Sequence record: NZ_CP013725.1
DNA: 64,000 nt
Direction: 5' to 3' (one strand)
From: a plasmid
The notes under the pieces were generated by a model that was not told the DNA's origin, made no database searches, and saw only the letters and a program-made list of their open reading frames with translations. This document shows positions 3,359 to 34,713 of this stretch, in pieces; positions within the stretch are counted from its first letter, which is position 1; every line of letters begins with the position of its first letter. Made by a program: the position numbers and the translations under genes.

Positions 3359-3748
3359 CTATGGCTTTAAAATGTACACAGGTGGAATATGAATGTTGTT
3401 TGGACGATCACCGTTTCTGTCAGATAAACGTTGGAAAGCGCCGTGTAGACCTTCTACCAAATGACTGGATGGCAATAAATTGTGCCAATTTGTTACGATT
3501 TGATTTAATTTATTTAATCGATTCTGTTTTTCATTAAGTTGATCATCCATGTAAATATTTAGTACGTTTGTTAGGTATTGTGCCCACATTTTTAATTCGA
3601 TAGAGTCCACATGGTCTGCTACGAAAGCTAGTTTTTCCAATACGAGTTTAGATTTTTCAAAGTACACTAAGTCTATTAAGTAGTCAGATAGGATAATATT
3701 TTTTGTAAAAATGGCTGAATAAATCCATGGCATTGAAGTCAACAGCAA
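3359..3748 (-). CDS. Hypothetical protein
   Basis: 129-aa ORF with no recognisable motif and a TTG start. Overlaps an opposite-strand 75-aa ORF. Confidence 0.25.
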   Translation of the reverse strand: MLLTSMPWIYSAIFTKNIILSDYLIDLVYFEKSKLVLEKLAFVADHVDSIELKMWAQYLTNVLNIYMDDQLNEKQNRLNKLNQIVTNWHNLLPSSHLVEGLHGAFQRLSDRNGDRPNNIHIPPVYILKP

Positions 3749-10834: not shown

Positions 10835-12739
10835 ATGCAACAATATATATTAAGCAAGAAAAATGTTATCACCGTCATCAGTGGATTGTTAATCGTACTC
10901 GGTTTCTTCAGTCACTTTGTTTTAGAAAACGTAGGACTTTCAGAGTGGTCTTTGATCATCGCCTCTGTCTTTGGGATTACGCCAATTGCCATTCAAGCGT
11001 TTCAAGCAATGAAAGTCAAAGTCATTAGTATTGATGTCTTAGTCAGTATTGCAGCGATTGGTGCGCTTTTTATTCAAAATTATGAAGAATCGGCTATTGT
11101 CACGTTCTTATTCTTATTCGGACACTACTTGGAACAACGAACATTGAACCAAACGCGATCTGCTATCAAAGAATTGACTGAAATGGCACCCGAAAGCGCC
11201 TTGAAACAAATGGATAATGGCGAATTTGAAGAAGTAGAAGTGGATGATATAGATGAAGGGGATATCTTGCTCGTTAAAACGGGTGCGAAAGTTCCAGTAG
11301 ATGGCATAGTCCTTACGGGTGAAGGGCATATCAATGAAGCTAGCATTACAGGTGAAGCTGTTCCAGTCAACAAGCTAGCTGATGCAGAAGTTTTTGCAGG
11401 AACCATTTTAGAAAACGGAACGATTCAAATCAGAGCTGACCGAGTTGGTGAGGACACCACATTTGGAAAAATTATTGAACTCGTGGAAGAAGCACAAGAT
11501 TCTAAATCCGAAGCGGAACGGTTCATTGATCGCTTTTCTAAATACTACACACCAGCTGTCTTGGTTCTGGCAATTGTTGTATGGGCGTTCAGTCAAAATA
11601 TTGAGTTAGCAATCACCATCTTGGTTCTAGGTTGCCCAGGCGCATTAGTTATCGGAGTGCCTGTCTCAAACGTTGCCGGTATTGGGAATGGTGCTCGTAA
11701 CGGTGTTCTTTTAAAAGGGAGTGAAGTCATTCAAGACTTCAGCAATGTGGATACAATTGTATTTGATAAGACAGGTACTTTAACTGTCGGAAACCCAACC
11801 GTTGCAGCGACTGAACTGTATGAAAAAGATCCTGCTGAAACGCTTGGCTATCTGGCCAGTGTGGAACGGGAATCAGATCATCCATTAGCAAAAGCGGTCT
11901 TAAATCAAATTGGAGAAACAAACTTTTATCCTGTTGAAGGAACTGAAGTCGTGAAAGGCGGCGGAATCGTTTCAAGTGTAGCTGGACATAGAGTGGCTGT
12001 TGGGAATGTGGCCTTGATGGAAAAAGAAAATGTCACTCTCAGCAAAAAAGTGCAAAAAGATGTCAAACGGTTTGAACAACAAGGGAACTCTCTCGTTTTG
12101 ACAGCGGTCGACGGTGAATTAAAAGTACTGATGGGCATTCGCGATCAAGTCCGTCCGGGTGTGAAAGCTAATTTGCAGGAATTAAAAGACTTGGGCGTGA
12201 AAAATCTAGTCGTTCTTTCAGGAGATAACCAAGGAACCGTTGATGTGGTCGCCGGCGAACTTGGTTTGACCGAAGCTCACGGCCACATGTTGCCGGAAGA
12301 CAAATCGGCTTATATCGGAAAACTTCAACAACGTGGTCAAATTGTAGCCTTTGTTGGAGATGGCGTTAACGACAGTCCGTCCTTAGCTTTAGCAGACATT
12401 GGCATCGCAATGGGAAGCGGAACGGACGTAGCGATTGAAACATCCGATGTCGTTTTAATGAACTCGAACTTCAGCAACTTGCCTCACGCATTAGGATTAG
12501 TAAAAGCCACCGCAAATAATATGAAACAAAATATCGTGATTTCAATTGGAGTAGTGTTGGTCTTGTTGACCAGCGTCTTCTTCAGCGAATGGATGAATAT
12601 GTCTATCGGAATGTTGGTTCATGAAGGTAGTATCTTGGTGGTAATTTTCAATGGCATGAGATTAATGAAGTATAAGTTGAAAGGTCGAAAAGAACAAAAA
12701 GAAATATCAGCACCTGCAGAGAAAGTAAAAATATCTTAA
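10835..12739 (+). CDS. Heavy-metal P1B-type ATPase without an N-terminal metal-binding domain and with an atypical CPG transmembrane motif
   Basis: DKTGTLT, GDGVNDSPSL and TGEA motifs. TM6 reads VLGCPGALVIGVP (CPG rather than CPC/CPH/SPC). ATG 10835 is preceded by GGAGGG. Paralogous to the ATPase at 237-2120. Confidence 0.85.
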   Translation: MQQYILSKKNVITVISGLLIVLGFFSHFVLENVGLSEWSLIIASVFGITPIAIQAFQAMKVKVISIDVLVSIAAIGALFIQNYEESAIVTFLFLFGHYLEQRTLNQTRSAIKELTEMAPESALKQMDNGEFEEVEVDDIDEGDILLVKTGAKVPVDGIVLTGEGHINEASITGEAVPVNKLADAEVFAGTILENGTIQIRADRVGEDTTFGKIIELVEEAQDSKSEAERFIDRFSKYYTPAVLVLAIVVWAFSQNIELAITILVLGCPGALVIGVPVSNVAGIGNGARNGVLLKGSEVIQDFSNVDTIVFDKTGTLTVGNPTVAATELYEKDPAETLGYLASVERESDHPLAKAVLNQIGETNFYPVEGTEVVKGGGIVSSVAGHRVAVGNVALMEKENVTLSKKVQKDVKRFEQQGNSLVLTAVDGELKVLMGIRDQVRPGVKANLQELKDLGVKNLVVLSGDNQGTVDVVAGELGLTEAHGHMLPEDKSAYIGKLQQRGQIVAFVGDGVNDSPSLALADIGIAMGSGTDVAIETSDVVLMNSNFSNLPHALGLVKATANNMKQNIVISIGVVLVLLTSVFFSEWMNMSIGMLVHEGSILVVIFNGMRLMKYKLKGRKEQKEISAPAEKVKIS

Positions 12740-13038
12740 GAATAAATTAGAGGATGAACATAGGCACTGATTGTCCCTTATTCAAAAAATAGTTTTTTGC
12801 GTATTGGGAAAAGTCTTTAATGGGTCAGAAACTTAAAAAGTTTTTGATCCTTTTTTAATTTCTCATTTAATAGCTCTTTCAGCAACTCAATTAATTAGGT
12901 CAGAAAGTATTTCATATAGCGGTCAGCAGAGTATGCCTTAACGCCCAATTGTCTAATAAAAGTTTCAGCCAAATAGAAAATGGACGAATAAGTTGCGCAT
13001 ATAATAATTGTTTTATAGTGGGCAAAAAATACGGGTTG

Positions 13039-13100
13039 TATGATGCTACCAATAAGATACTTATTCTCATTTTTGTTGAGATACCGATAAATATCTGTTC
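13039..13100 (-). pseudogene. Degenerate remnant of a serine-resolvase gene 3' end, a direct repeat of 16422-16490
   Basis: CCAATAAGATACTTATTC..TTTTTGTTGAGATACCGATAAAT aligns with GCTAATAAGATATTTATTCGCTCTGATTTTTGTTGAGATATCGATAAAT at the 3' end of the resolvase gene at 16433-17011, with about 85% identity and one indel. Confidence 0.7.
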
Positions 13101-13121
13101 CCTGTTTTGTAATAAGATTAT

Positions 13122-14978
13122 TTAATTATTTTTTTCTATATACCATTTTTTTGATATCTTAGCACTATTACCATCTGTATTAGGTATTGCCTCACCAAAT
13201 GAAGTTAACATGGGAATTCGTATTGCTGAGCCGAAAACGAGAGCATGCCCTGTTTGTAAATAAGTCAAACGATCAATTGTGTCTCTATCAATATATGGAA
13301 CCATTCGAGATATATAATTTAAATCATCAGGATTTTGAATTCTATGAACGATAAAATTACTACATTGAGAAACTACCGTTTTTGATAAATCACTAGGTCT
13401 TTGTGTAGAAACACACATCAAAAATCCATATTTTCTACCTTCTTTTGAAATTCTTTGAAATATATCAAAATCATATGTCCCATGTGAAAGAGTATTATCT
13501 TTTATATACCTATGTGCTTCTTCAATAAATAAGTTTATAGGTTTATCTGCTTTTTTTTGATGCCCTTTTTGATAATCTAAAATTATTTTAGCTAGCACTC
13601 TTATAAGAACCTCCGCCATTGAATCATTCATAGCACTTATATCTATGTTTACAATATTACTATTGTCCAAAAACTTCTCAAAAAAAGATTCTTTATTTTT
13701 AAATTGAGTTACATTGAAAATCCTACTAAAAGATGACTCTACTAAACTTTGCATTCTAGAAACTAATGGCGCGGTGTATTCTTGTACTCTTTGACTATTC
13801 AAGCTTCCTTCATATAAAATGGCAAATTTCATAGCAGTTAAAAAATTATTAGGTGAAAAACGTACTAATTGGTCAAATTTAAATTCTTCCATTTGAGTAA
13901 AATTTACATATGATTGTAAAAAAGAGATGATTTTTTCAATATCGTCCATTTTTCCATAGGCCACATTTATACTATTTCTTAAAGTTTTTTCATCATTGAT
14001 TTTTGTGTCTAGATTAATGCTCTGAGTTTGGAAGTTTGATAATAATGAACTTACTTTATCTGCTTTAGATGGGGATGATTCAGAGCTATTTAACATAGCT
14101 ATGATAGTAGAAGCTAGTATATGGTTCTTAGCATCTTCAGAATTACTATTATCCGAAAAGAAAATTTGAACTACTTCCATTGTTTTCCTTAAAACTGGAA
14201 TTTGGGTTTTTTCTGATGCATTTAGCAAAATAGCCCAATCATCTACTGATAACAGCCAAATTGGAACTTCAAAATTATCCTCGTCTGAAAGTGGTTTAAT
14301 GAATTGGCACTTAATATCATTATTATTTTCTTCTATTATTTTAGAAAAAGATTTTTGATATTCACCATTGGAATCAATCAGGATTAATCTAGATCCAAGT
14401 GCTGAATAATTTGACTTTAAATATATATTTTGAATTATTCTTGCAATGGAGTTAGACTTACCTGCTCCAGTATTTCCAAATATAGCCGAATGGTAGCCAA
14501 AAAACTTATCTAAATCTACTTTCACATCGTATTCTGAGAATAAAACTGATTTTCCTAATGAAAATGTTGCAACTCTAGTATTACCATCAGAAACGTTAAT
14601 TTCAGAATTCTTTACATCTAACATGATATCTAATTCTTCGTTTGTAACAATGTGAACTTCAGAATAAAGTAGAGGCATTTTAGATACCCCAAAAAAGAAC
14701 TCATTATTAGTAATCTCACCTATCAATCTTAAAGAAATAACTCTACTAGCATTAGGTTTAGCTAACGGAGCACTGGAAATATGTCGAGAACTTTCGGCAG
14801 ATAATACTTCGGCTATCAGAGTTCGACCTAATTCGTAAATTGATACATATGTTCCAATCTCTCCAACAAACCTAGTTTCATCCAATGTATTTATATAATT
14901 ATCTATATTATTAAATACTTCTGCTAATACTATGGAATTTTTAATAAGGATTAGCCTTCCAATAGAACGATTATTCAT
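13122..14978 (-). CDS. herA: HerA-like (DUF87/FtsK-HerA superfamily) ATPase. Second gene of a SIR2-HerA anti-phage module
   Basis: 618 aa. Walker A FGNTGAGKSN. Walker B with EAH (INLFIEEAHRY). C-terminal VSTQRPSDL motif. RBS GGAGGAAAT. The start ATG overlaps the stop of the upstream SIR2 gene by 8 nt (ATGAATAA). Confidence 0.85.
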   Translation of the reverse strand: MNNRSIGRLILIKNSIVLAEVFNNIDNYINTLDETRFVGEIGTYVSIYELGRTLIAEVLSAESSRHISSAPLAKPNASRVISLRLIGEITNNEFFFGVSKMPLLYSEVHIVTNEELDIMLDVKNSEINVSDGNTRVATFSLGKSVLFSEYDVKVDLDKFFGYHSAIFGNTGAGKSNSIARIIQNIYLKSNYSALGSRLILIDSNGEYQKSFSKIIEENNNDIKCQFIKPLSDEDNFEVPIWLLSVDDWAILLNASEKTQIPVLRKTMEVVQIFFSDNSNSEDAKNHILASTIIAMLNSSESSPSKADKVSSLLSNFQTQSINLDTKINDEKTLRNSINVAYGKMDDIEKIISFLQSYVNFTQMEEFKFDQLVRFSPNNFLTAMKFAILYEGSLNSQRVQEYTAPLVSRMQSLVESSFSRIFNVTQFKNKESFFEKFLDNSNIVNIDISAMNDSMAEVLIRVLAKIILDYQKGHQKKADKPINLFIEEAHRYIKDNTLSHGTYDFDIFQRISKEGRKYGFLMCVSTQRPSDLSKTVVSQCSNFIVHRIQNPDDLNYISRMVPYIDRDTIDRLTYLQTGHALVFGSAIRIPMLTSFGEAIPNTDGNSAKISKKWYIEKNN

Positions 14979-16164
14979 TTATATTTCCTCCGTTTTCCCT
15001 TATTTCTGAGAAAACTTTGTTTATTTGTTCAGAAATTTTTTGTTTTTCCTGTTCTTCGCTTGGGATAGCCGGCATTAACTTCTCAACAAAATTATTAAAA
15101 TAATGAATTTTATTTTTTGAATTAATGATAGTAATTCTACTATCATCCATATTTTTAATTTTCCCTATATTGGTCTCTATTTTCTCATCAGCATTATTTT
15201 CGTATTCAGTATCGCCTAAGATGATTAGCCTAAAAGAAGGAATTGATAAATTATTTAGTATTATTCGATTGATGTGATCGTCGCCAAAGCTGTAACCTAG
15301 TGTAATTAATACACTATTCTTTTGGGTTAAATTATCTTGAAACGATCGCATTAAATCTGTATAGGGTACCATTAAGGTACTTCTATCTTTTAAAGGTGTT
15401 GGATATATCATCACATTCTCAAGAGAACTTTTATCTATTTCTTTCATGGATATTTCATATATCTTATCTTCGCTTTTTTTCCATGAAATAGATCCGTGAA
15501 TTTTATACAAATTATAAAAATGATCAACTCTGTTCCATACATCCTTATTTAAATTCATATTGTCCACATACATATATCTATACATATTTGGGTTGAATGT
15601 TCTCATATATGAACCAGTAAATCCGCTATTATAAATAAAATTCAATTCATCCAATGCACGCTCATTATACATATCATAATTTGTAGTTACTATATTAATT
15701 GGACTTTTTCTACTTGAAGAAATTGTTTTTAAATAAAGCTTTTTGTATATTTCAGATAGCTCCTTGCAATCCATGCCTTGAGTAATTTTATCTGTAATGA
15801 ATTTTTTAACAATATTAATCTTTTTATCAATTTCTTTATCAATTTCCTTAATATGATTTACTTGTCTGAGCGCATTCATGAAATCCATCAGTTCTTCAAG
15901 ATTTCGGTTAACTTTATCTTCTATACCAACACCCAATATTTCGAAATCTGGGTTTGATTTTATGAAGTCTTTAAAAAGACCAGCCATTGTAGATATAGCT
16001 GCTTCTTCATTATCGATATAAAAGCTAGAGCAACCTGCACCCATTAATATAGAAAGATTTTCCATTTGTAATGCTTGAGCAATGGTTTTTTGTACATCAC
16101 TTAGAGATTTTTTTACTTTATTAGCTCCTTGGTAGTAATTAATTTCTTCATCAATTTGATTCAA
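14971..16164 (-). CDS. SIR2-family (SIR2_2/DHS-like) NAD-binding protein, predicted NADase effector of a SIR2-HerA defense module
   Basis: GAGCS (GAGxS) Rossmann motif, TTNYD motif and catalytic-type HGS (KIHGSISW). Start chosen at TTG 16164, 6 nt after GGAGGGA. The ORF track extends to 16182. Confidence 0.85.
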   Translation of the reverse strand: MNQIDEEINYYQGANKVKKSLSDVQKTIAQALQMENLSILMGAGCSSFYIDNEEAAISTMAGLFKDFIKSNPDFEILGVGIEDKVNRNLEELMDFMNALRQVNHIKEIDKEIDKKINIVKKFITDKITQGMDCKELSEIYKKLYLKTISSSRKSPINIVTTNYDMYNERALDELNFIYNSGFTGSYMRTFNPNMYRYMYVDNMNLNKDVWNRVDHFYNLYKIHGSISWKKSEDKIYEISMKEIDKSSLENVMIYPTPLKDRSTLMVPYTDLMRSFQDNLTQKNSVLITLGYSFGDDHINRIILNNLSIPSFRLIILGDTEYENNADEKIETNIGKIKNMDDSRITIINSKNKIHYFNNFVEKLMPAIPSEEQEKQKISEQINKVFSEIRENGGNINE

Positions 16165-16432
16165 ACCTAATCCCTCCAACAACTATAAATACTTTATAAC
16201 AATTATATCATTATTAAATACATTTTTTCCTATAGTTCTTTTTTTAGTCAGGCGAATAAGTTATGTATTAGAATAGAAGGAAGTAGAAATCTATGCTCTA
16301 ATTTAGTGAAAAATTTGTGGACCCTGCTATAATGATACTCGATTAACATAGGTAGATAAACGTGAATCGAGTATTTTTTACTTGAAACGGCAAGACAAAT
16401 TTGGCTTAAGCACAACGCGGCTAATAAGATAT

Positions 16433-17011
16433 TTATTCGCTCTGATTTTTGTTGAGATATCGATAAATCGTTGTTCGCGAAACATTCCAGCGTGCAGCAA
16501 TTGTTTTAATGGGAGTTCCATTATCAATGAGGGTTCGCATTAAAGCCAGATCTTCTGCTGTTAGTTTTTCCGGCCGGCCACCAAAACGACCTCTTGCCCG
16601 AGCAGCTTCTCTTCCTGCTGCAGAACGTTCTAAAATCAAATTCCGTTCAAATTCTGCGAAAGCAGCGAACAAATGAAAGATAAGCTGGCCGGTGGAACTG
16701 GATTTATTCATCGTAATATTTTCTTGGAGACTATGAAAACTGATCCCATTATCATTTAGTTGATTGACAACACGAATAAGATCTTCCATATTCCTACCTA
16801 ATCGATCTAAACGCCAAACCACAATCGTATCTCCAGAACGACAAAAATCAATCGCAGCGTCCAATCCAGGGCGTTTACTTTTTGCGCCACTGATATGATC
16901 CTGGAAAATTTTCTCACAACCATCTTTTTCTAAACTATCGATTTGTAAATCTAAATTTTGTAAGCCAGTTGAAACTCGTGCATACCCAATTTTCAATTTC
17001 GTCACATCCAT
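16433..17011 (-). CDS. Serine recombinase/resolvase (Sin/Res/Bin type)
   Basis: N-terminal YARVSTxxQ catalytic serine motif and C-terminal HTH (RTTIYRYLNK). Confidence 0.9.
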   Translation of the reverse strand: MDVTKLKIGYARVSTGLQNLDLQIDSLEKDGCEKIFQDHISGAKSKRPGLDAAIDFCRSGDTIVVWRLDRLGRNMEDLIRVVNQLNDNGISFHSLQENITMNKSSSTGQLIFHLFAAFAEFERNLILERSAAGREAARARGRFGGRPEKLTAEDLALMRTLIDNGTPIKTIAARWNVSRTTIYRYLNKNQSE

Positions 17012-17137
17012 AAATTTATTTTTCTGTTCTTAGTGTAACATATCTTTATTTCGATAGATATAATGGACATAGATTTATTGATGGCTTATTGAACATACAA
17101 ATGGATCAAAATGAGTGTAAAAAAGATATATTAACTA

Positions 17138-17167
17138 GGTGTACAGAAAATGGTTATTTTCTGTACA
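17138..17167. promoter_or_regulatory. Perfect 12-bp-arm inverted repeat GTGTACAGAAAA-N6-TTTTCTGTACAC in the divergent resolvase/copB intergenic region. Candidate operator or res subsite
   Basis: Arms are exactly complementary. Not followed by a T-run on either strand. Confidence 0.6.
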
Positions 17168-17271
17168 CTACAAAATAAAAAAGTCAAATGGTATATACCC
17201 CTATACTGTATATGTTATACTCAAATTGTCTTATTACTATCTTTAAAAATATAAAATTAGGAGGTTTAATT

Positions 17272-19317
17272 TTGTCGAATAACAAAAAACACCAAAATCA
17301 TGAGCATCATAGTCATCAAGAACATGAAAATCACACTAGTCATGGTAATCATGAACATCACCATCATGGAAATTTTAAAAGTAAATTCTTTATTTCTTTG
17401 ATTTTTGCGATACCGATTATTATTTTATCGCCCATGATGGGAGTTAAATTACCGTTTCAAATTTCATTTACAGGGTCAGATTGGATTGTATTAATTCTTG
17501 CTACAATTTTATTCTTTTACGGAGGAAAGCCATTTTTATCAGGGGCTAAAGATGAAATTTCAACTAAAAAACCTGGAATGATGACGCTTGTTGCTCTAGG
17601 TATTTCAGTAGCTTATATTTATAGTTTATACGCCTTTTATATGAATAACTTCAGTGGTTCATCCACACATACAATGGACTTTTTCTGGGAATTAGCGACT
17701 TTAATTTTAATCATGTTATTAGGTCATTGGATTGAAATGAACGCAGTAGGTAATGCAGGCAATGCACTGAAGAAAATGGCAGAACTTTTACCTAATACTG
17801 CAGTGAAGCTGATTGATAACAATCAACGAGAAGAAGTTAAAATATCAGATATTCATATTGACGATATTGTGGAAGTCAGAGCAGGCGAAAGTATACCCAC
17901 AGACGGAATCATTGTTCAAGGAGAAACATCAATTGACGAATCATTAGTTACTGGCGAATCAAAAAAAGTTCATAAAACTCATAATGATGATGTTATTGGA
18001 GGTTCAATTAATGGTTCAGGTACAGTACAAGTTAAAGTGACTGCTACGGGTGAAAATGGCTACCTATCTCAAGTTATGGGTCTTGTTAACCAAGCTCAAA
18101 ACGATAAGTCAAAAGCTGAACTCCTCTCTGATAAAGTCGCAGGTTATTTGTTTTACTTTGCAGTAAGTATTGGCCTGATTTCATTTATTGTATGGATGCT
18201 TATTCAAAACAACGTCGATTTCGCACTTGAACGGCTAGTAACCGTATTAGTCATTGCTTGTCCACATGCATTAGGCTTGGCAATACCTTTAGTTACAGCA
18301 CGTTCTACCTCTATAGGCGCACATAATGGTTTAATCATTAAAAACAGAGAATCTGTAGAAATCGCACAACACATTGATTACATCATGATGGATAAAACTG
18401 GGACACTAACTGAAGGTAACTTTTCAGTGAATCACTATGAAAGTTTTACAGACGAGTTAAATAATGAAGAAATATTGAGTCTATTTGCTTCATTAGAAAG
18501 TAATTCTAATCATCCACTTGCCACTGGTATTGTTGATTTTGCTAAAGGCAAAAATATTTCATATGCTACTCCTCAAGAAGTTAATAATATTCCAGGTGTA
18601 GGCTTAGAAGGCACAGTTGATAATAAAAAACTCAAAATAGTGAATGTTTCTTATCTCGATAAAAGCAATTTTGATTATAATAAAGAACAATTTACGAATC
18701 TCGCTCAACAAGGGAATTCTATTAGTTATCTAATTCATGACCGACAAGTTATTGGTATTATCGCACAAGGCGATAAAATTAAAGAAAGTTCAAAACAAAT
18801 GGTTTCGGATTTATTATCGAGAAACATTACGCCAGTCATGCTTACAGGCGATAATAAAGAAGTGGCACAAACAGTGGCTGAAGAATTAGGTATTAGTGAT
18901 GTCCACGCGCAATTGATGCCCGAAGATAAAGAAAGTATTATCCAAGATTATCAAAGCAATGGTAGCAAAATCATGATGGTTGGTGATGGTATCAATGATG
19001 CGCCAAGCCTTATTAGAGCAGATATTGGTATGGCAATTGGCGCAGGGACAGATGTAGCTATTGAATCGGGGGATGTCATACTCGTTAAAAGTAATCCTTC
19101 TGATATTATCAATTTTTTGTCCCTTTCAAAAAATACGATGAAAAAAATGGTTCAAAATTTATGGTGGGGCGCAGGATATAACGTGATTGCAGTTCCTCTT
19201 GCAGCTGGTATATTAGCTTCTATTGGTTTAATATTATCACCTGCTGTGGGTGCAATACTTATGTCTTTAAGTACGATCATCGTAGCAATTAATGCATTTA
19301 CATTAAAATTAAAATAA
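17272..19317 (+). CDS. copB: Copper-translocating P1B-3-type ATPase with His-rich N-terminus, CopB-like
   Basis: His-rich tract [30 protein letters not shown] motif ([10 protein letters not shown]), DKTGTLT and [13 protein letters not shown] start 7 nt after AGGAGG. About 30% GC, as in staphylococcal DNA. Confidence 0.9.
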
Positions 19318-19331
19318 AAGAGGTAAATATA

Positions 19332-20492
19332 ATGTATAAAAAAATGTTCACAATTTTAATTACGTTATTTTCTATAATGTTTATGGTTCCTAATGATACT
19401 TTTGCAGAAGGTAAGCACAACATGATGGACATGAAAGAAAATGATCAAAAGCGAAATGATATGATGGATATGAAAAGTCATGACGAAAGAAAAAATTTGA
19501 ATTCTTCACAAGGAAAAAATGAAATAACATTTCCCAAAGTTTTAGATCCTAAAAAAGATAACAATGGTTATAAAAGTTATACATTAAAAGCGCAGAAAGG
19601 AAAGACAGAATTTTACAAAGGTAATTTCTCTAACACTTTAGGATACAATGGAAATTTACTTGGGCCAACTTTAAAATTAAAAAAAGGAGATAAGGTTAAA
19701 ATTAAGTTAGTCAACAACTTAGATGAAAATACAACATTTCATTGGCATGGGTTAGAAATAGATGGAAAAGTGGATGGAGGCCCTTCTCAAGTTATAAAAC
19801 CAGGAAAAGAAAAAACAATAAAATTTGAGGTTAAACAAGAGGCTGCTACATTATGGTATCATCCCCACCCCTCCCCAAATACAGCTAAACAAGTTTATAA
19901 TGGTTTATCAGGGTTATTATATATAGAGGATGACAAAAAGAATAATTATCCTAGCAATTATGGGAAAAATGATTTGCCTATAATAATCCAAGATAAAACA
20001 TTTGTATCTAAAAAATTAAATTATACAAAAACGAAAGATGAAGATGGTACTCAAGGTGATACAGTCCTTGTGAATGGGAAAGTAGATCCTAAATTAACAA
20101 CAAAAGAAGGAAAAATACGTTTGAGACTTTTAAATGGCTCCAATGCTCGGGATTTAAATCTTAAGCTAAGTAATAATCAAAGTTTTGAATATATTGCTTC
20201 AGAAGGCGGCCATTTAGAAAAGACTAAAAAGTTAAAAGAAATTAATTTAGCTCCTTCAGCAAGAAAAGAAATAGTAATAGATTTATCTAAAATGAAAGAA
20301 GAAAAAGTCAATCTTGTTGATAATGATGAAACAGTAATTTTACCAATTATTAACAAAGAAAAAAGTACTAACAAAGACACTACTCCAAAAGTAGATAAAA
20401 AAATCAAATTAGAAGGTATGGACGGGGTCCCAAGCGCCTACGGGAAATTTGTATCGATAAGGATTACAAATTCCCGTAATATCAACGTTTGA
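19332..20492 (+). pseudogene. mco: Multicopper oxidase, 3'-truncated. The reading frame runs into the transposon terminal inverted repeat at 20424
   Basis: Signal peptide, HWHG and WYHPHP copper-site motifs present. C-terminal HCH / HxxH type-1 copper motifs absent. The last ~23 codons are encoded by the Tn3-family IR. Confidence 0.8.
20424..20461 (+). repeat. Tn3-family left terminal inverted repeat (38 bp)
   Basis: GGGG....ACGxTAAG-type Tn3-family IR, adjacent to the tnpA 3' end. Confidence 0.85.
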
Positions 20493-20499
20493 CGACTCT

Positions 20500-23415
20500 C
20501 TATTTTTCTATGTTTAATTTTCTCAACCTCTTGGGAATAGATAACAAATCAAATTTGTATTCACCAAGAAACGTAATATGCTCCCAATTAATAGGAGAAA
20601 TATGGTTCATATAGTTGGTTACTTCTGGATCTATTTTCACTAGATAATCATAGGCTTCTTGTAAATAGACGGCGTTCCATATACTAATAGCATTTATTAA
20701 AACATTTAGTGCACTTGCACTTTGAAGTTGCCGACGAATATCACGTTCCATGAATTTACCTCGGCGACCAAAAAATAGTTCTCTTGCCAAAGCATTTACG
20801 GCTTCCGTTTTATTCAAACCATGGGTAATCTTACGTCTTAAGCTATCATCTGTCACATAATCTATCATGAAAATACTCTTCTCAATCCGTCCCAATTCTC
20901 TTAAAGCGGTAGCTACCTTATTTTTTCGTGCGTAAGAACCTAGCTTTCCTAAAATTAGCGAACTTGAGACTTTACCAGTTTGAATGGAATAAGCGATTCG
21001 TTTAATTTCTTCGTAACTTTCATCAATGGTTTTTATATTGATCCTACCACTGATGAGCCCTAATAAATCAGGGTATTCTGAAGTTGGCTTTATAGAAAAT
21101 AATTGAGACTTTTTTATATTCCTAATACGGGGTTCAAAATGAAACCCTAGTAAAGCCGTCATACCAAACACTTGATCTGTATAACCATTTGTGTCAGTGA
21201 AGTGTTCTTCAATATCTAAATCTGTTTCGTGGTAAAGCAAGCCATCTAATGTATGAGTCGCTTCTCTCGTGTTGGTCGAAACAACTTCAACATGATGTGA
21301 GGTATTTCTGTCATTGATTGACCGAATCATTGTGGCGCCTTTCTCTAAGCTTTTATAATGTGGATTCACGTCAGCCTTAATGGCGGATACACCTACTGGT
21401 ACACGCATTCCATCGGAAGCACTCGTTTTACCTTCTCCCCAAAAATCAGCTATAGGAATTCCTAATTGAAAATTAACCAAAATAGATTGGGCACAGGTTA
21501 AGGCTTCTTTATAAAACCGCCATTGTTTAGTATTCGCCAATTGAGGATAAGTAATTCCGGGGGTGGATTGGGCCATTTTCTCAAGCCCAATATTCATTCC
21601 TAATCCTAATAAAGTGGCAAAAACAATTTTCTTTTCTCGTTCATTTGGCGGATTTCCAGTTGAATCATGGATAAATTCTTGCGAAAATTGAGTCCAGCTA
21701 TCCACTTCTATTAATAGGTCACTTAATCTTATTTTGGGAATCATTGAATAAAGTTTTTTTCTATATTCCTCTGCTTCATCTGGTGTAACTTTCTCCAATT
21801 TTTTTAGCACCATTTTGGCTGAACTTTTGCCAGAATTCGAATAATATTGTAGTTGTGAGTCCAATATTGCGCCCCTAGAAGTCAAATAATCATCAAATGT
21901 ATCTGGAATAGTGAGTGAGTTAACGCAAGCATCGGAACTGATTAAGTAATCATCAATGTTTCGATGGGCTAAGCTTCCTTCTACCGAAATATTTCCTGAT
22001 CTAATATTATTTTTTAACTCTGTGAACGCTACCAACTCGTAGAAGGATCGGTCTATTTTTCCTTCTTCAGGTTGAACAAGACGTTCCCATTTTTTACTCA
22101 CAAATTCAATGGATGTGTTTGCTGGTATTTTCCGTTTACCATCGTTTTTTAACTCATTTATTTGAGTAAGCGCTGTAAGAATTGGTTGTGCAGATGAGGT
22201 TGCTTTAAACGAGAGTATTTTTAAAAGCATTGGGGTATATCTTCTAAGGTAAGTGGCTTTATTTCTCACCATTTCTAAATATCCGTGATTTTTCTTACCA
22301 GTAATTCGTTTAGCGTCTTCTCCATCTTGGATTAAGTCATGCCAGGGGATAACTCGTTCTATTTCGTCAAAAGGATTACTGTCGTTGTCTTTTGCAAAAT
22401 GAAGTGCATCAATCAGAGACGCATAATGTTCTAATTTTTCAGTCGCCAACTTCCCTTTCTCTTTCAACAGTTCTTGCGAATCGTGCATCCCTTTTCGTTT
22501 AATCCCCGCTAAAATCCGGTCATTAATTTCAATGAGCAGATCGATCAGATACTGATGATGATCCACTAAAAAAGCAATGAGTAAGGAATACTTTTTTTCG
22601 AATTCAAAACGAGAAAAATCATAGGCATCGTAATTATCACCTAATCGTGCTAACTGAAGAAATCTATTTCGGTGAATATGCGACACATTGATTGTTCCTA
22701 GTTCAAGAACCGTAATCGTCTCAACTTTTTTGCAAATGGTCATAAAACTCTCTGGATTGGCTTTGCCAGGGATATCTTTTAACCAGGCGAGTTTAGTCAT
22801 CTTCGTTTCTTTATATACTAGAAACAACTCATCTAATTTCTCGATTTGTGTTTCTGTTAGTGAATCCAGAAGAATTGAAAACAGTGTGCTTTCAGCCTTA
22901 TCACGACAATGGCTGATAATGTCTTCTAGTGTCGCTATCGATGGAAAAATAATTCGATTTTGGGTGAGGAAGCCTAATGTTTTTTTCATGAGATAGGTAG
23001 AGTCATCATTTTCTAATGCCAGCTTAATAAGAAATGCTATTAATTGATTGCGTGTGTCGACACTTCCAAAACGCTGATACCTAAATGTTTCTAATATCTC
23101 ATTAAAGTGATTGGCACGTGTGTTCCTATGGGCGTATAAGGCCAGTTCAATTGAGTCAAGATGTAACTGGCGCCTTACATAAGAGATTAAACGGTCTGAT
23201 TGGATGGACCAGTTACTCAACGAACACCCAGGGTATCGTGCCAAGCAGAGCTGAATGGCAAACCCTAACTTATTGATATCCCCTCTGTGTTGGTTGATGA
23301 TATCTAAATCAGAGTCAGAGAAACTGAAATAAGCTTGAAAATCCTCTTCAGATAAGTGATCGACAGAAAGAAGTTGCTCCCGCTGTGCTGCTGTTAAAAT
23401 TTTCTTTAATGCCAT
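20500..23415 (-). CDS. tnpA: Tn3-family transposase TnpA
   Basis: 971 aa, the typical length. DDE-type Tn3 transposase C-terminal region. Gene end lies next to the IR. Confidence 0.9.
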   Translation of the reverse strand: MALKKILTAAQREQLLSVDHLSEEDFQAYFSFSDSDLDIINQHRGDINKLGFAIQLCLARYPGCSLSNWSIQSDRLISYVRRQLHLDSIELALYAHRNTRANHFNEILETFRYQRFGSVDTRNQLIAFLIKLALENDDSTYLMKKTLGFLTQNRIIFPSIATLEDIISHCRDKAESTLFSILLDSLTETQIEKLDELFLVYKETKMTKLAWLKDIPGKANPESFMTICKKVETITVLELGTINVSHIHRNRFLQLARLGDNYDAYDFSRFEFEKKYSLLIAFLVDHHQYLIDLLIEINDRILAGIKRKGMHDSQELLKEKGKLATEKLEHYASLIDALHFAKDNDSNPFDEIERVIPWHDLIQDGEDAKRITGKKNHGYLEMVRNKATYLRRYTPMLLKILSFKATSSAQPILTALTQINELKNDGKRKIPANTSIEFVSKKWERLVQPEEGKIDRSFYELVAFTELKNNIRSGNISVEGSLAHRNIDDYLISSDACVNSLTIPDTFDDYLTSRGAILDSQLQYYSNSGKSSAKMVLKKLEKVTPDEAEEYRKKLYSMIPKIRLSDLLIEVDSWTQFSQEFIHDSTGNPPNEREKKIVFATLLGLGMNIGLEKMAQSTPGITYPQLANTKQWRFYKEALTCAQSILVNFQLGIPIADFWGEGKTSASDGMRVPVGVSAIKADVNPHYKSLEKGATMIRSINDRNTSHHVEVVSTNTREATHTLDGLLYHETDLDIEEHFTDTNGYTDQVFGMTALLGFHFEPRIRNIKKSQLFSIKPTSEYPDLLGLISGRINIKTIDESYEEIKRIAYSIQTGKVSSSLILGKLGSYARKNKVATALRELGRIEKSIFMIDYVTDDSLRRKITHGLNKTEAVNALARELFFGRRGKFMERDIRRQLQSASALNVLINAISIWNAVYLQEAYDYLVKIDPEVTNYMNHISPINWEHITFLGEYKFDLLSIPKRLRKLNIEK

Positions 23416-23418
23416 AAG

Positions 23419-23973
23419 TTAGTTTTTCCTTCCATTAAGATAGCGGTATAGGGTTGTTTTGCTTAGTTTAGAGGCATCAAGAATCTGATTAATTGAATAT
23501 TCCTTACTATCGTACATTTTCAAAGCCAACTCAATTGATTGACTGGCTTTACTTGGTCGCCCCCCTTTTTTTCCACGTGCTCTTGCTGCTTCAAGACCTG
23601 ATTTGGTTCTTTCAATTGTAATATCACGTTCCAACTCTGCTAAACTAGCCATGACTCGGAAAAAGAATCTTCCCATAGAAGTAGAGGTATCAACGTTATC
23701 TTGAATAGAGATAAAATTAACCCCAAGCTCTTCAAACGTTTCTGAAAGCTCAATCAAATGTTTAGTTGAACGTGAAATTCGATCAAGTTTATAAATAACC
23801 ACTGAGTCACCTTCACGTAACCCCTTTATCATGTCTTCCAATTGTGGACGGTCTCGTTTTGAACCCGTCACCTTTTCTTGGAATAGTTTATCGATACCGT
23901 GTTGGGTGAGTGCATCAATTTGCAAATTCAAATTTTGATCCTCTGTACTCACTCGAGCATAGCCAAAAATCAT
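23419..23973 (-). CDS. tnpR: Tn3-family serine resolvase TnpR
   Basis: MIFGYARVSTEDQNL catalytic motif and C-terminal HTH (KTTLYRYL). Start taken at the internal Met. The ORF track extends to 24021. Confidence 0.88.
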   Translation of the reverse strand: MIFGYARVSTEDQNLNLQIDALTQHGIDKLFQEKVTGSKRDRPQLEDMIKGLREGDSVVIYKLDRISRSTKHLIELSETFEELGVNFISIQDNVDTSTSMGRFFFRVMASLAELERDITIERTKSGLEAARARGKKGGRPSKASQSIELALKMYDSKEYSINQILDASKLSKTTLYRYLNGRKN

Positions 23974-34113: not shown

Positions 34114-34713
34114 GTGAAATTAGGATATGCACGTGTCAGTACCGTTGGTCAAGATCTGCAGACACAGATTGAAAAGCTCAAAAATGTAGGGATCACGGAT
34201 GACTATTTATATATTGAAAAAAAATCTGGAACGACCACAAGAAATCGACATGAGCTTGAAAATTTACTGAAGCAGGCAAGAACAGGTGATCATGTTTTTG
34301 TGACAAAGATCGATCGATTAGCAAGATCGATTATTGATTTAAATAACGTGATGAACCGATTTAAAGAAAAAGGCGTCAGCGTCACTTTTTTAGATAATAA
34401 CATGACGTTTGAAGCAGATACCGAAAATAATGCGATGCAACGTCTGTTATTTAATGTTCTTGGCTCTTTTGCAGAATTTGAGCGCGATATGATCGTTAAC
34501 CGAACCGGAGAAGGCCGAAAACGTGCAAAAGCAGCTGGAAAAAAATTAGGACGAACAGGACAACCAGAAGAAAAAATTCGGAGAGCAATCGCGATGTGGC
34601 AGAATAGAAAACAATTGGATGTATCTATTTCTGAAATTGTAGAAGATACTGGTGTTCCAAAAGCAACGCTTTATAAAAAAATAAAGGAGATGGAGAGAGG
34701 GAATAAAAGATAA
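34114..34713 (+). CDS. Serine recombinase/resolvase
   Basis: MKLGYARVSTVGQDL catalytic motif and C-terminal HTH (KATLYKKI). GTG start after AAGGTGG. Confidence 0.88.
   Translation: MKLGYARVSTVGQDLQTQIEKLKNVGITDDYLYIEKKSGTTTRNRHELENLLKQARTGDHVFVTKIDRLARSIIDLNNVMNRFKEKGVSVTFLDNNMTFEADTENNAMQRLLFNVLGSFAEFERDMIVNRTGEGRKRAKAAGKKLGRTGQPEEKIRRAIAMWQNRKQLDVSISEIVEDTGVPKATLYKKIKEMERGNKR

Follow-up and report, generated by a model that had tools for sequence, protein, structure and literature searches.

The window analysed here, 64,000 nucleotides (nt) of sequence record NZ_CP013725.1, is by its sequence part of a Listeria plasmid. Between a heavy-metal P-type ATPase module and copB it carries three minus-strand genes that RefSeq names 'DUF87 domain-containing protein', 'SIR2 family protein' and 'recombinase family protein'. 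The first is a gene for a HerA-type ATPase at positions 13122-14978 (618 amino acids, ATG start) and the second a SIR2 gene at 14971-16164 (397 amino acids, TTG start). A scan of open reading frames (ORFs) found both at the coordinates that a first-pass annotation, made from the letters alone, had given, and the RefSeq coordinates of the SIR2 gene (WP_012952176.1) are the same. A 250-bp spacer (16183-16432), specific to the Listeria block described below, separates the SIR2 start from the stop of the third gene, which encodes a small serine recombinase of the resolvase/invertase family (16433-16996, 187 amino acids; alternative start at 17011). Past the other end of the pair lies a relic of the 3' end of the recombinase gene (13047-13105, minus strand; ∼17 codons, with frame and stop lost). 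We consider it highly probable that the locus holds a canonical SIR2-HerA abortive-infection pair, the cargo of a recombinase-linked block that ends in crossover sites and contains a scar downstream of herA.

A SIR2-HerA gene pair

All motifs quoted in the first-pass annotation were found again: GAGCS (residues 42-46), TTNYD (160-164) and KIHGS (221-225) in SIR2, and Walker A GNTGAGKSN (168-176), Walker B LFIEEAH (483-489) and TQRP (525-528) in HerA. Both proteins match the expected Pfam families above the curated cut-offs, SIR2 to SIR2_2 (E-value 1.3e-9, 38.7 bits, cut-off 24.5) and HerA to DUF87 (5.5e-21, 76.1 bits, cut-off 23.2). The PADLOC profiles of the system are matched over nearly their full length, PDLC04084 by SIR2 (4.7e-99, covering 10-393 of 397 residues) and PDLC04102 by HerA (1.2e-154, covering 3-617 of 618 residues).

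The best solved relatives of both proteins come from the Staphylococcus aureus system: SaSir2 (8YHX, 6.5e-40) and SaHerA (8YHO, 1.1e-40), the latter match spanning residues 40-593 of the Listeria HerA. The SIR2 subunits of the Escherichia coli ('Nezha') and Paenibacillus systems follow SaSir2 in the ranking; for HerA, four other HerA-family chains stand between SaHerA and the E. coli protein. In the HMMER alignment N226 and H287 of SaSir2 correspond to N162 and H223 of the Listeria SIR2, and these two residues are invariant among 16 homologues with identity down to 49%. The Listeria SIR2 is the predicted NADase effector, with N162/H223 as its catalytic pair. An AlphaFold model of SIR2 (mean predicted local distance difference test score, pLDDT, 68; predicted template modelling score, pTM, 0.72) was used for a fold search only. 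In the Foldseek search against the PDB, ranks 1-39 were all SIR2 chains of SIR2-HerA complexes (E-values 9e-17 to 2e-6), with Thoeris ThsA, DSR2, SPARSA and Avs5 far behind (1e-5 to 4e-3; template modelling (TM) scores 0.30-0.38). These four have the SIR2 NADase fold in common with the Listeria protein, none of them has a HerA partner, and the defences in which they act end in NAD+ depletion.

The closest SIR2 homologues are found in Enterococcus hirae (86% identity), E. durans (82%), Carnobacterium (75%) and Vagococcus (73%), and a large group at ∼50% identity includes Veillonella, Lachnospiraceae and others. Among 80 related loci, taken from species-representative genomes, HerA lies directly downstream of SIR2 in all except one (79/80). 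In the window the two genes overlap by 8 nt, ATGAATAA (14971-14978, minus strand), with the SIR2 stop inside the HerA start and GGAGGA preceding that start at 14986-14991; this arrangement, described in the same way in the first-pass annotation, is consistent with translational coupling. The TTG start of SIR2 stands as well: at 16164 it lies 7 nt past a GGAGGG ribosome-binding site (16172-16177), and the ORF extends to 16182, where there is an alternative in-frame TTG. Both ORFs are intact and 99.9% conserved across 43 plasmids. Against two diverged copies (88% and 87% nucleotide identity), the ratio of nonsynonymous to synonymous substitution rates (dN/dS) is 0.12 for SIR2 and 0.14-0.18 for HerA, low values which indicate that both genes are under purifying selection. 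Profiles, solved structures, catalytic residues, fold, gene order and selection thus agree with the identification, first proposed from motifs, of an NAD-depleting defence pair; as judged from these features, the pair is an ordinary, intact and selected member of the SIR2-HerA (Gao_Her_SIR/Nezha) family.

Of the systems with solved structures, that of S. aureus is the nearest. It has the same two-gene order, catalytic Asn/His and Walker motifs (8YHX, 8YHO), and differs in that only the C-terminal part of SIR2 (residues 88-363) aligns well, the N-terminal ∼90 residues being divergent, and in that the Listeria genes lie on a plasmid, with a recombinase gene linked to them. The E. coli system (8J4U, 8SU9, 8SUB, 8SUW, 8UAE) is more distant: SIR2 matches at 2.2e-26 over residues 9-364 and HerA at 1.4e-29, and the TM scores of the E. 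coli SIR2 chains against the predicted Listeria fold are 0.55-0.60. SaSir2 is reported to be without the C-terminal helix that E. coli Sir2 uses to form a dodecamer (PMC11514289). The system of Paenibacillus sp. 453MF (8W9L, 8WLD; PMC11472057) matches at 1.7e-21 for SIR2 and 1.4e-36 for HerA; it shows the lowest SIR2 identity (∼20% in structural alignment), and its HerA is longer (696 amino acids).

Experiments with SaSir2-HerA have established that HerA binding activates the NADase of SIR2, that ATP inhibits it and that N226/H287 are the catalytic pair (Zhen et al. 2024, PMC11514289). By analogy with the S. aureus, E. coli and Paenibacillus systems, we infer for the Listeria pair a defence in which HerA would assemble into a hexameric ATPase, bind oligomers of SIR2 and activate their NADase, which cellular ATP would hold in check. 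Phage infection would lead to hydrolysis of NAD+ to ADP-ribose and nicotinamide, and with the loss of NAD+ the infected cell would stop growing and phage multiplication would fail.

Several results weigh against a defence role of this kind. The pair misses the equivalog cut-offs of NCBIfam, SIR2 scoring 145 against 500 bits for SIR2_antiphage (NF042942) and HerA scoring 167 and 153 against 800 and 850 bits for HerA_antiphage (NF042943/4). The AlphaFold model of SIR2 is moderate overall and poor at residues 177-267, H223 included, a stretch too uncertain to serve for an assessment of the active site. A promoter scan gave no convincing SIR2 promoter (28 sites versus 26.6 expected). Our literature searches gave no paper linking Listeria plasmids with SIR2-HerA and no account of phage protection by the Listeria pair; in the Listeria plasmid papers searched for them, neither a SIR2 nor a HerA gene is mentioned. 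Since the NCBIfam models are narrow, the low scores show that the pair belongs to another subfamily of the same system, and they also account for the generic RefSeq names. The first-pass annotation had called the pair divergent; this holds with respect to the NCBIfam equivalogs and is overstated in view of the near full-length PADLOC matches. Its remark on AT-richness was borne out by a G+C content of 28.9% for the pair versus 36.9% for the window and 39.9% for the recombinase gene.

One could argue that the pair does not act in phage defence in Listeria at all: it might be a decaying passenger, or it might serve to maintain the plasmid, to compete with other plasmids or to repair DNA in the manner of archaeal HerA-NurA. 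The literature searched reports no phenotype of the Listeria pair, SaSir2-HerA expressed in E. coli caused no growth arrest (PMC11514289), the equivalog cut-offs are not reached, and some copies look damaged: HerA is annotated in two pieces in one Listeria plasmid and is broken by an insertion sequence in the chromosome of E. durans. Decay is hard to reconcile with intact, 99.9% conserved ORFs in 43 plasmids and dN/dS of 0.12-0.18, or with conserved catalytic and Walker residues. As to other roles, the partner of this HerA is SIR2, not the NurA nuclease, and the fold matches of high significance are only to SIR2-HerA defence complexes. We regard a non-defence role as improbable and retain abortive infection as the probable function.

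The conserved block and its ends

Six Listeria plasmids, among them pLM58 of Listeria monocytogenes (NZ_CP023753.1), match region 12740-17190 with 100% identity, and many more match it with 99.9%. Comparison of these plasmids delimits a conserved block of 4.2 kb (12934-17153) that comprises the scar, HerA, SIR2, the recombinase and the site region upstream of it. The block was found at 99.9-100% identity in 43 complete plasmids, which come from L. monocytogenes, L. innocua and L. welshimeri. A further Listeria plasmid (L007) carries a colinear block at 88% identity, from window position 17095 to 12928, with recombinase, pair, relic and the same left end. The SIR2-HerA copy that is common to Enterococcus-type loci covers 16212 to 13131 only, homology with these copies starting inside the spacer, at 16211/16212.

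Among the copies that are 99.9% identical, at least four combinations of left and right flank were seen. To the left the neighbour is an Enterococcus-like ATPase module, glycoside-hydrolase genes, or IS6 with a short fragment; to the right it is copB, a yobA/bcrABC region, or IS1216-clpL. The metal-resistance setting noted in the first-pass annotation is correct: in the window the P-type ATPase lies on one side and copB on the other. Around the pair or the block we found no transposon terminal inverted repeats or target duplications.

Pfam detects Resolvase (1.7e-43) and HTH_7 (1e-17) domains in the recombinase, as in the proteins of the Gin/Hin, Tn3/gamma-delta res and Sin res systems. Its closest solved relative is the Gin DNA invertase (1.2e-47) rather than a resolvase (gamma-delta resolvase 2e-29, Sin 1.8e-23). 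Two other serine recombinases of the window, at 23434-23967 and 34114-34713, are 42% and 34% identical to it. A small serine recombinase gene was found within 5 kb in only two of the 80 related SIR2-HerA loci; it is therefore not part of the defence system, and its linkage to the pair is specific to this Listeria plasmid lineage.

At the right end lies the palindrome TGTACAGAAAATG-GT-TATTTTCTGTACA (17140-17167), a crossover site with perfect 12-bp arms and a central GT at 17153-17154. All right flanks are identical through TGTACAGAAAATG-GT and diverge at the very next base, and what follows the GT is one of three different, related half-sites: TATTTTCTGTACA in the window and pLM5578, GAGTTTTGGAACA in pCFSAN021143 and GGTTTTCTGAACA in pLIS36. 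Plasmid pLIS35 (NZ_MZ127844.1), which has no SIR2-HerA, contains at 3480-3520 the sequence TGTTCCAAAACTC-GT-TATTTTCTGTACA, which links copB to phosphotransferase genes. Read as its reverse complement, the left arm of this sequence equals the right arm of pCFSAN021143, and from their sequences the junctions in these two plasmids look like the two products of one exchange between palindromic sites. In one plasmid of S. aureus the same palindrome and an almost unchanged copB flank adjoin a recombinase gene of only ∼72% identity.

We aligned the sequences that precede six related recombinase genes, five from four genera (Listeria, S. aureus, Enterococcus faecium, E. hirae and L. petauri) and one from a metagenome contig. 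In all six a palindrome of the form TGTnCAGAAA...TTTTnTGnACA lies at the same distance upstream of the gene, homology is lost just beyond it, and conserved blocks containing TGnACA lie between palindrome and gene. In the window these blocks, with half-site motifs of the TGnACA type, occupy 17012-17139, the probable accessory binding region of the recombinase. To judge from this conservation, the upstream layout is that of a crossover site plus accessory sites. It resembles the known site systems of small serine recombinases in having a ∼28-bp palindromic site upstream, half-site-like motifs in between and exchange at a central dinucleotide, and it differs in that the dinucleotide is GT and not a palindromic AT/TA. 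To our knowledge the sequence of the right site is unlike hix/gix, Tn3 res or Sin res.

The left end (12921-12946) is a hybrid crossover site of another recombinase type, with the halves GGTCAGCAGAGTA and TGCCTTAACGCCC and a central AT at 12933-12934. Its right half is constant and its left half differs in four Listeria contexts. In the window this arm and the adjoining flank are homologous, up to 12934-12937, to sequence present in >200 Enterococcus plasmids; in the two of these that we examined, a palindrome GGTCAACAGAGTATACCCTGTTGGTC lies upstream of a plus-strand recombinase gene. Next to the left site, the orphan region 12947-13046 contains the half-site-like motifs AGCCAAATAGAAAA and TGGGCAAAAAATA; by comparison with the Enterococcus plasmids, it may represent the accessory sequences of a res site that is not accompanied by its own recombinase gene. 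An exact-pattern scan of the species-representative genomes for the right arm of the left site (TATGYCTTAACGCCCAATTG) gave no matches, and further copies of either half-site type in the window do not exceed chance.

The breakpoints thus fall exactly at the centres of two palindromes, and it is probable that recombinase crossovers at these points have placed the block in its various plasmid surroundings, with its own recombinase as the presumable catalyst. Beyond this we suggest, tentatively, that the block is a defence module able to pass between plasmids, in Listeria and in Gram-positive genera related to it, through serine-recombinase exchange at res-type sites, without transposition or homologous recombination. 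Defence would then hitch-hike on the site-specific recombination machinery of the plasmid, and the same sites would stitch it to copper-resistance modules of the Staphylococcus type and metal-resistance modules of the Enterococcus type.

Three observations count against this account of the block. The two end sites are unrelated in sequence, so that one recombinase cannot act on both and each end must have been formed independently. For the left site no matching recombinase gene was found in the window, and the upstream regions of the two other serine recombinases there contain no similar site. In L007 the right-hand homology stops at 17095, inside the putative accessory region and not at the palindrome.

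The palindromes might also be operators or terminators, the mosaic ends having arisen by homologous recombination or IS6/IS1216 activity. IS6-family elements do lie near the block in pLM5578, pCFSAN021143 and pLIS36, and the right palindrome is in the promoter region of copB and is identical in the S. aureus copB plasmid. Yet the ends of the insertion sequences are off the junctions (∼180 bp away for the IS6 element of pLM5578), independent junctions share one central dinucleotide with partner arms that are still half-site-like, and the palindrome lies upstream of six recombinase genes with unrelated neighbours, among which only those of the window and the S. aureus plasmid adjoin copB. An origin of the ends by these other routes seems to us unlikely, and we keep to exchange at crossover sites as the probable account.

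The recombinase-end repeat downstream of herA

The relic starts 17 nt past the herA stop. Between 13051-13100 and 16423-16476, 45 of 50 positions are identical, with two gaps of 2 nt. The local alignment score is 61, as compared with 20.9 ± 2.6 (maximum 32) for 500 dinucleotide shuffles, and a 23-nt core is confined to these two positions in the window, where chance alone would give none; the similarity to the resolvase end reported in the first-pass annotation is thus real. Translated on the minus strand, the downstream copy (..GTDIYRYLNKNENKYL..) matches the C-terminus of the recombinase (..TTIYRYLNKNQSE, followed by the stop). Scored against recombinase gene ends, the relic is closest to that of its own block (61), then to that of L007 (40), with ten others at 32 or less.

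It had been proposed that the two copies flank a 3.3-kb cassette, and a strict version of this idea would make them the functional ends of a SIR2-HerA unit that inserts and excises by recombination between them. The repeat is statistically real, in direct orientation, and flanks the pair. Recombinase genes also recur near closely related pairs: L007 has one small serine recombinase, metagenome scaffold L005 has two downstream of its pair, and E. durans has two large serine recombinases upstream. Small serine recombinases, though, work at sites upstream of their genes and not at 3' ends, and the conserved palindrome of this family is indeed upstream of the gene. In both variants of the block (the window type and L007) the relic sits inside a larger unit with sharp ends elsewhere, and the copy shared by Enterococcus-type loci leaves out both repeat copies. 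In PLSDB we found no 'empty site', that is, no plasmid having the recombinase gene at at least 95% identity without the pair; nothing therefore suggests insertion or excision between the repeats. The copies differ by five substitutions and two indels in plasmids that are 99.9% identical, so the duplication is old. A cassette bounded by the repeats is accordingly very improbable.

Of the earlier suggestion that the pair was captured by or moved with a resolvase-associated unit, the association survives, as the pair does lie within a recombinase block; the boundaries do not, the ends being the centres of palindromic crossover sites outside the interval first described. The ∼55-bp copy of the recombinase 3' end is an old, non-functional scar and not a cassette boundary.

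Its most likely origin would be an old replacement, in which SIR2-HerA, along with a partial recombinase gene, took the place of most of a closely related recombinase gene already resident there. One side of such an event would require homologous recombination, the other an illegitimate join 17 nt past the herA stop. Between the window (16433-16996) and L007 (5173-5739) the synonymous substitution rate dS of the recombinase gene is 0.80, as compared with 0.37 for SIR2 and 0.44 for HerA. A recombinase dS about twice that of the pair, together with a relic of the window type in both variants, suggests that recombinase segments have been exchanged within the block.

Occurrence and neighbouring features

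The occurrence of the pair in 43 complete plasmids of three Listeria species makes phage resistance a plausible additional trait of these replicons. Virulent Listeria phages serve as biocontrol agents, and for that reason such a trait would be relevant; if the proposed exchange is real and the pair is active against the biocontrol phages used in food plants, it would provide a route by which phage resistance spreads together with stress-tolerance cargo. According to record sources and one report (PMC7994336), Listeria plasmids of this type are common in isolates from food and food plants, and some Listeria plasmid papers discuss stress and metal tolerance or heat resistance. The presence of SIR2-HerA on Listeria plasmids is new with respect to the literature searched. 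The system itself is of a well-known kind that standard tools find, and the understanding of how SIR2-HerA works is unchanged. The main value of the present analysis is in the prevalence of the pair on food-chain Listeria plasmids and in the clean evidence of module exchange at recombinase sites, the breakpoints giving a concrete picture of how Listeria exchanges modules with Staphylococcus and Enterococcus plasmids.

No Rfam family was matched in 12000-18000, the recombinase-SIR2 spacer included, and the small ORFs in the two spacers are chance-like. On the plus strand of the recombinase-SIR2 spacer, opposite to both genes, a promoter-like extended -10 element (TGCTATAAT) is directly followed by a hairpin with a T run (16306-16380; -14.4 kcal/mol, z = -2.7), an arrangement that might specify a small antisense RNA or act as a terminator in one direction. 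Downstream of the P-type ATPase gene, at 12822-12850, there is a further hairpin (13 pairs and a T run) with the look of a strong terminator; Enterococcus plasmids conserve its sequence immediately outside the crossover sites of their recombinases.

On the copB side (17155-20492), the flank of the crossover site is nearly identical to that in S. aureus plasmid NZ_CP011527.1, with ∼3 mismatches in the ∼90 bases compared, the adjoining recombinase genes being only ∼72% identical. The downstream ORF of this flank (19332-20492, 386 amino acids) is multicopper-oxidase-like and ends 8 bases before an ORF for a Tn3-family transposase (20500-23415); it has no coding sequence in the pLM58 annotation and so may be truncated.

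Relatives of the pair were also seen in other surroundings. In an E. durans chromosome (PDEB01000004.1, 2808-10470) the pair, at ∼79% nucleotide identity, lies downstream of the two large serine recombinase genes, and HerA is split by an insertion sequence with an rve-domain transposase. An isolated 183-bp herA fragment (87% identity) is present in Enterococcus casseliflavus plasmid NZ_CP050489.1 (2280-2462); together with the two-piece annotation of HerA in Listeria plasmid NZ_MZ090007.1 it is a sign of occasional decay of the system. Scaffold L005 (ERZ28647356, 6001-10470) carries a pair that is 87% identical, followed by two small serine recombinase genes oriented opposite to it, the second of which has 76% DNA identity to that of the window, and beyond them a RelB/ParE toxin-antitoxin pair.

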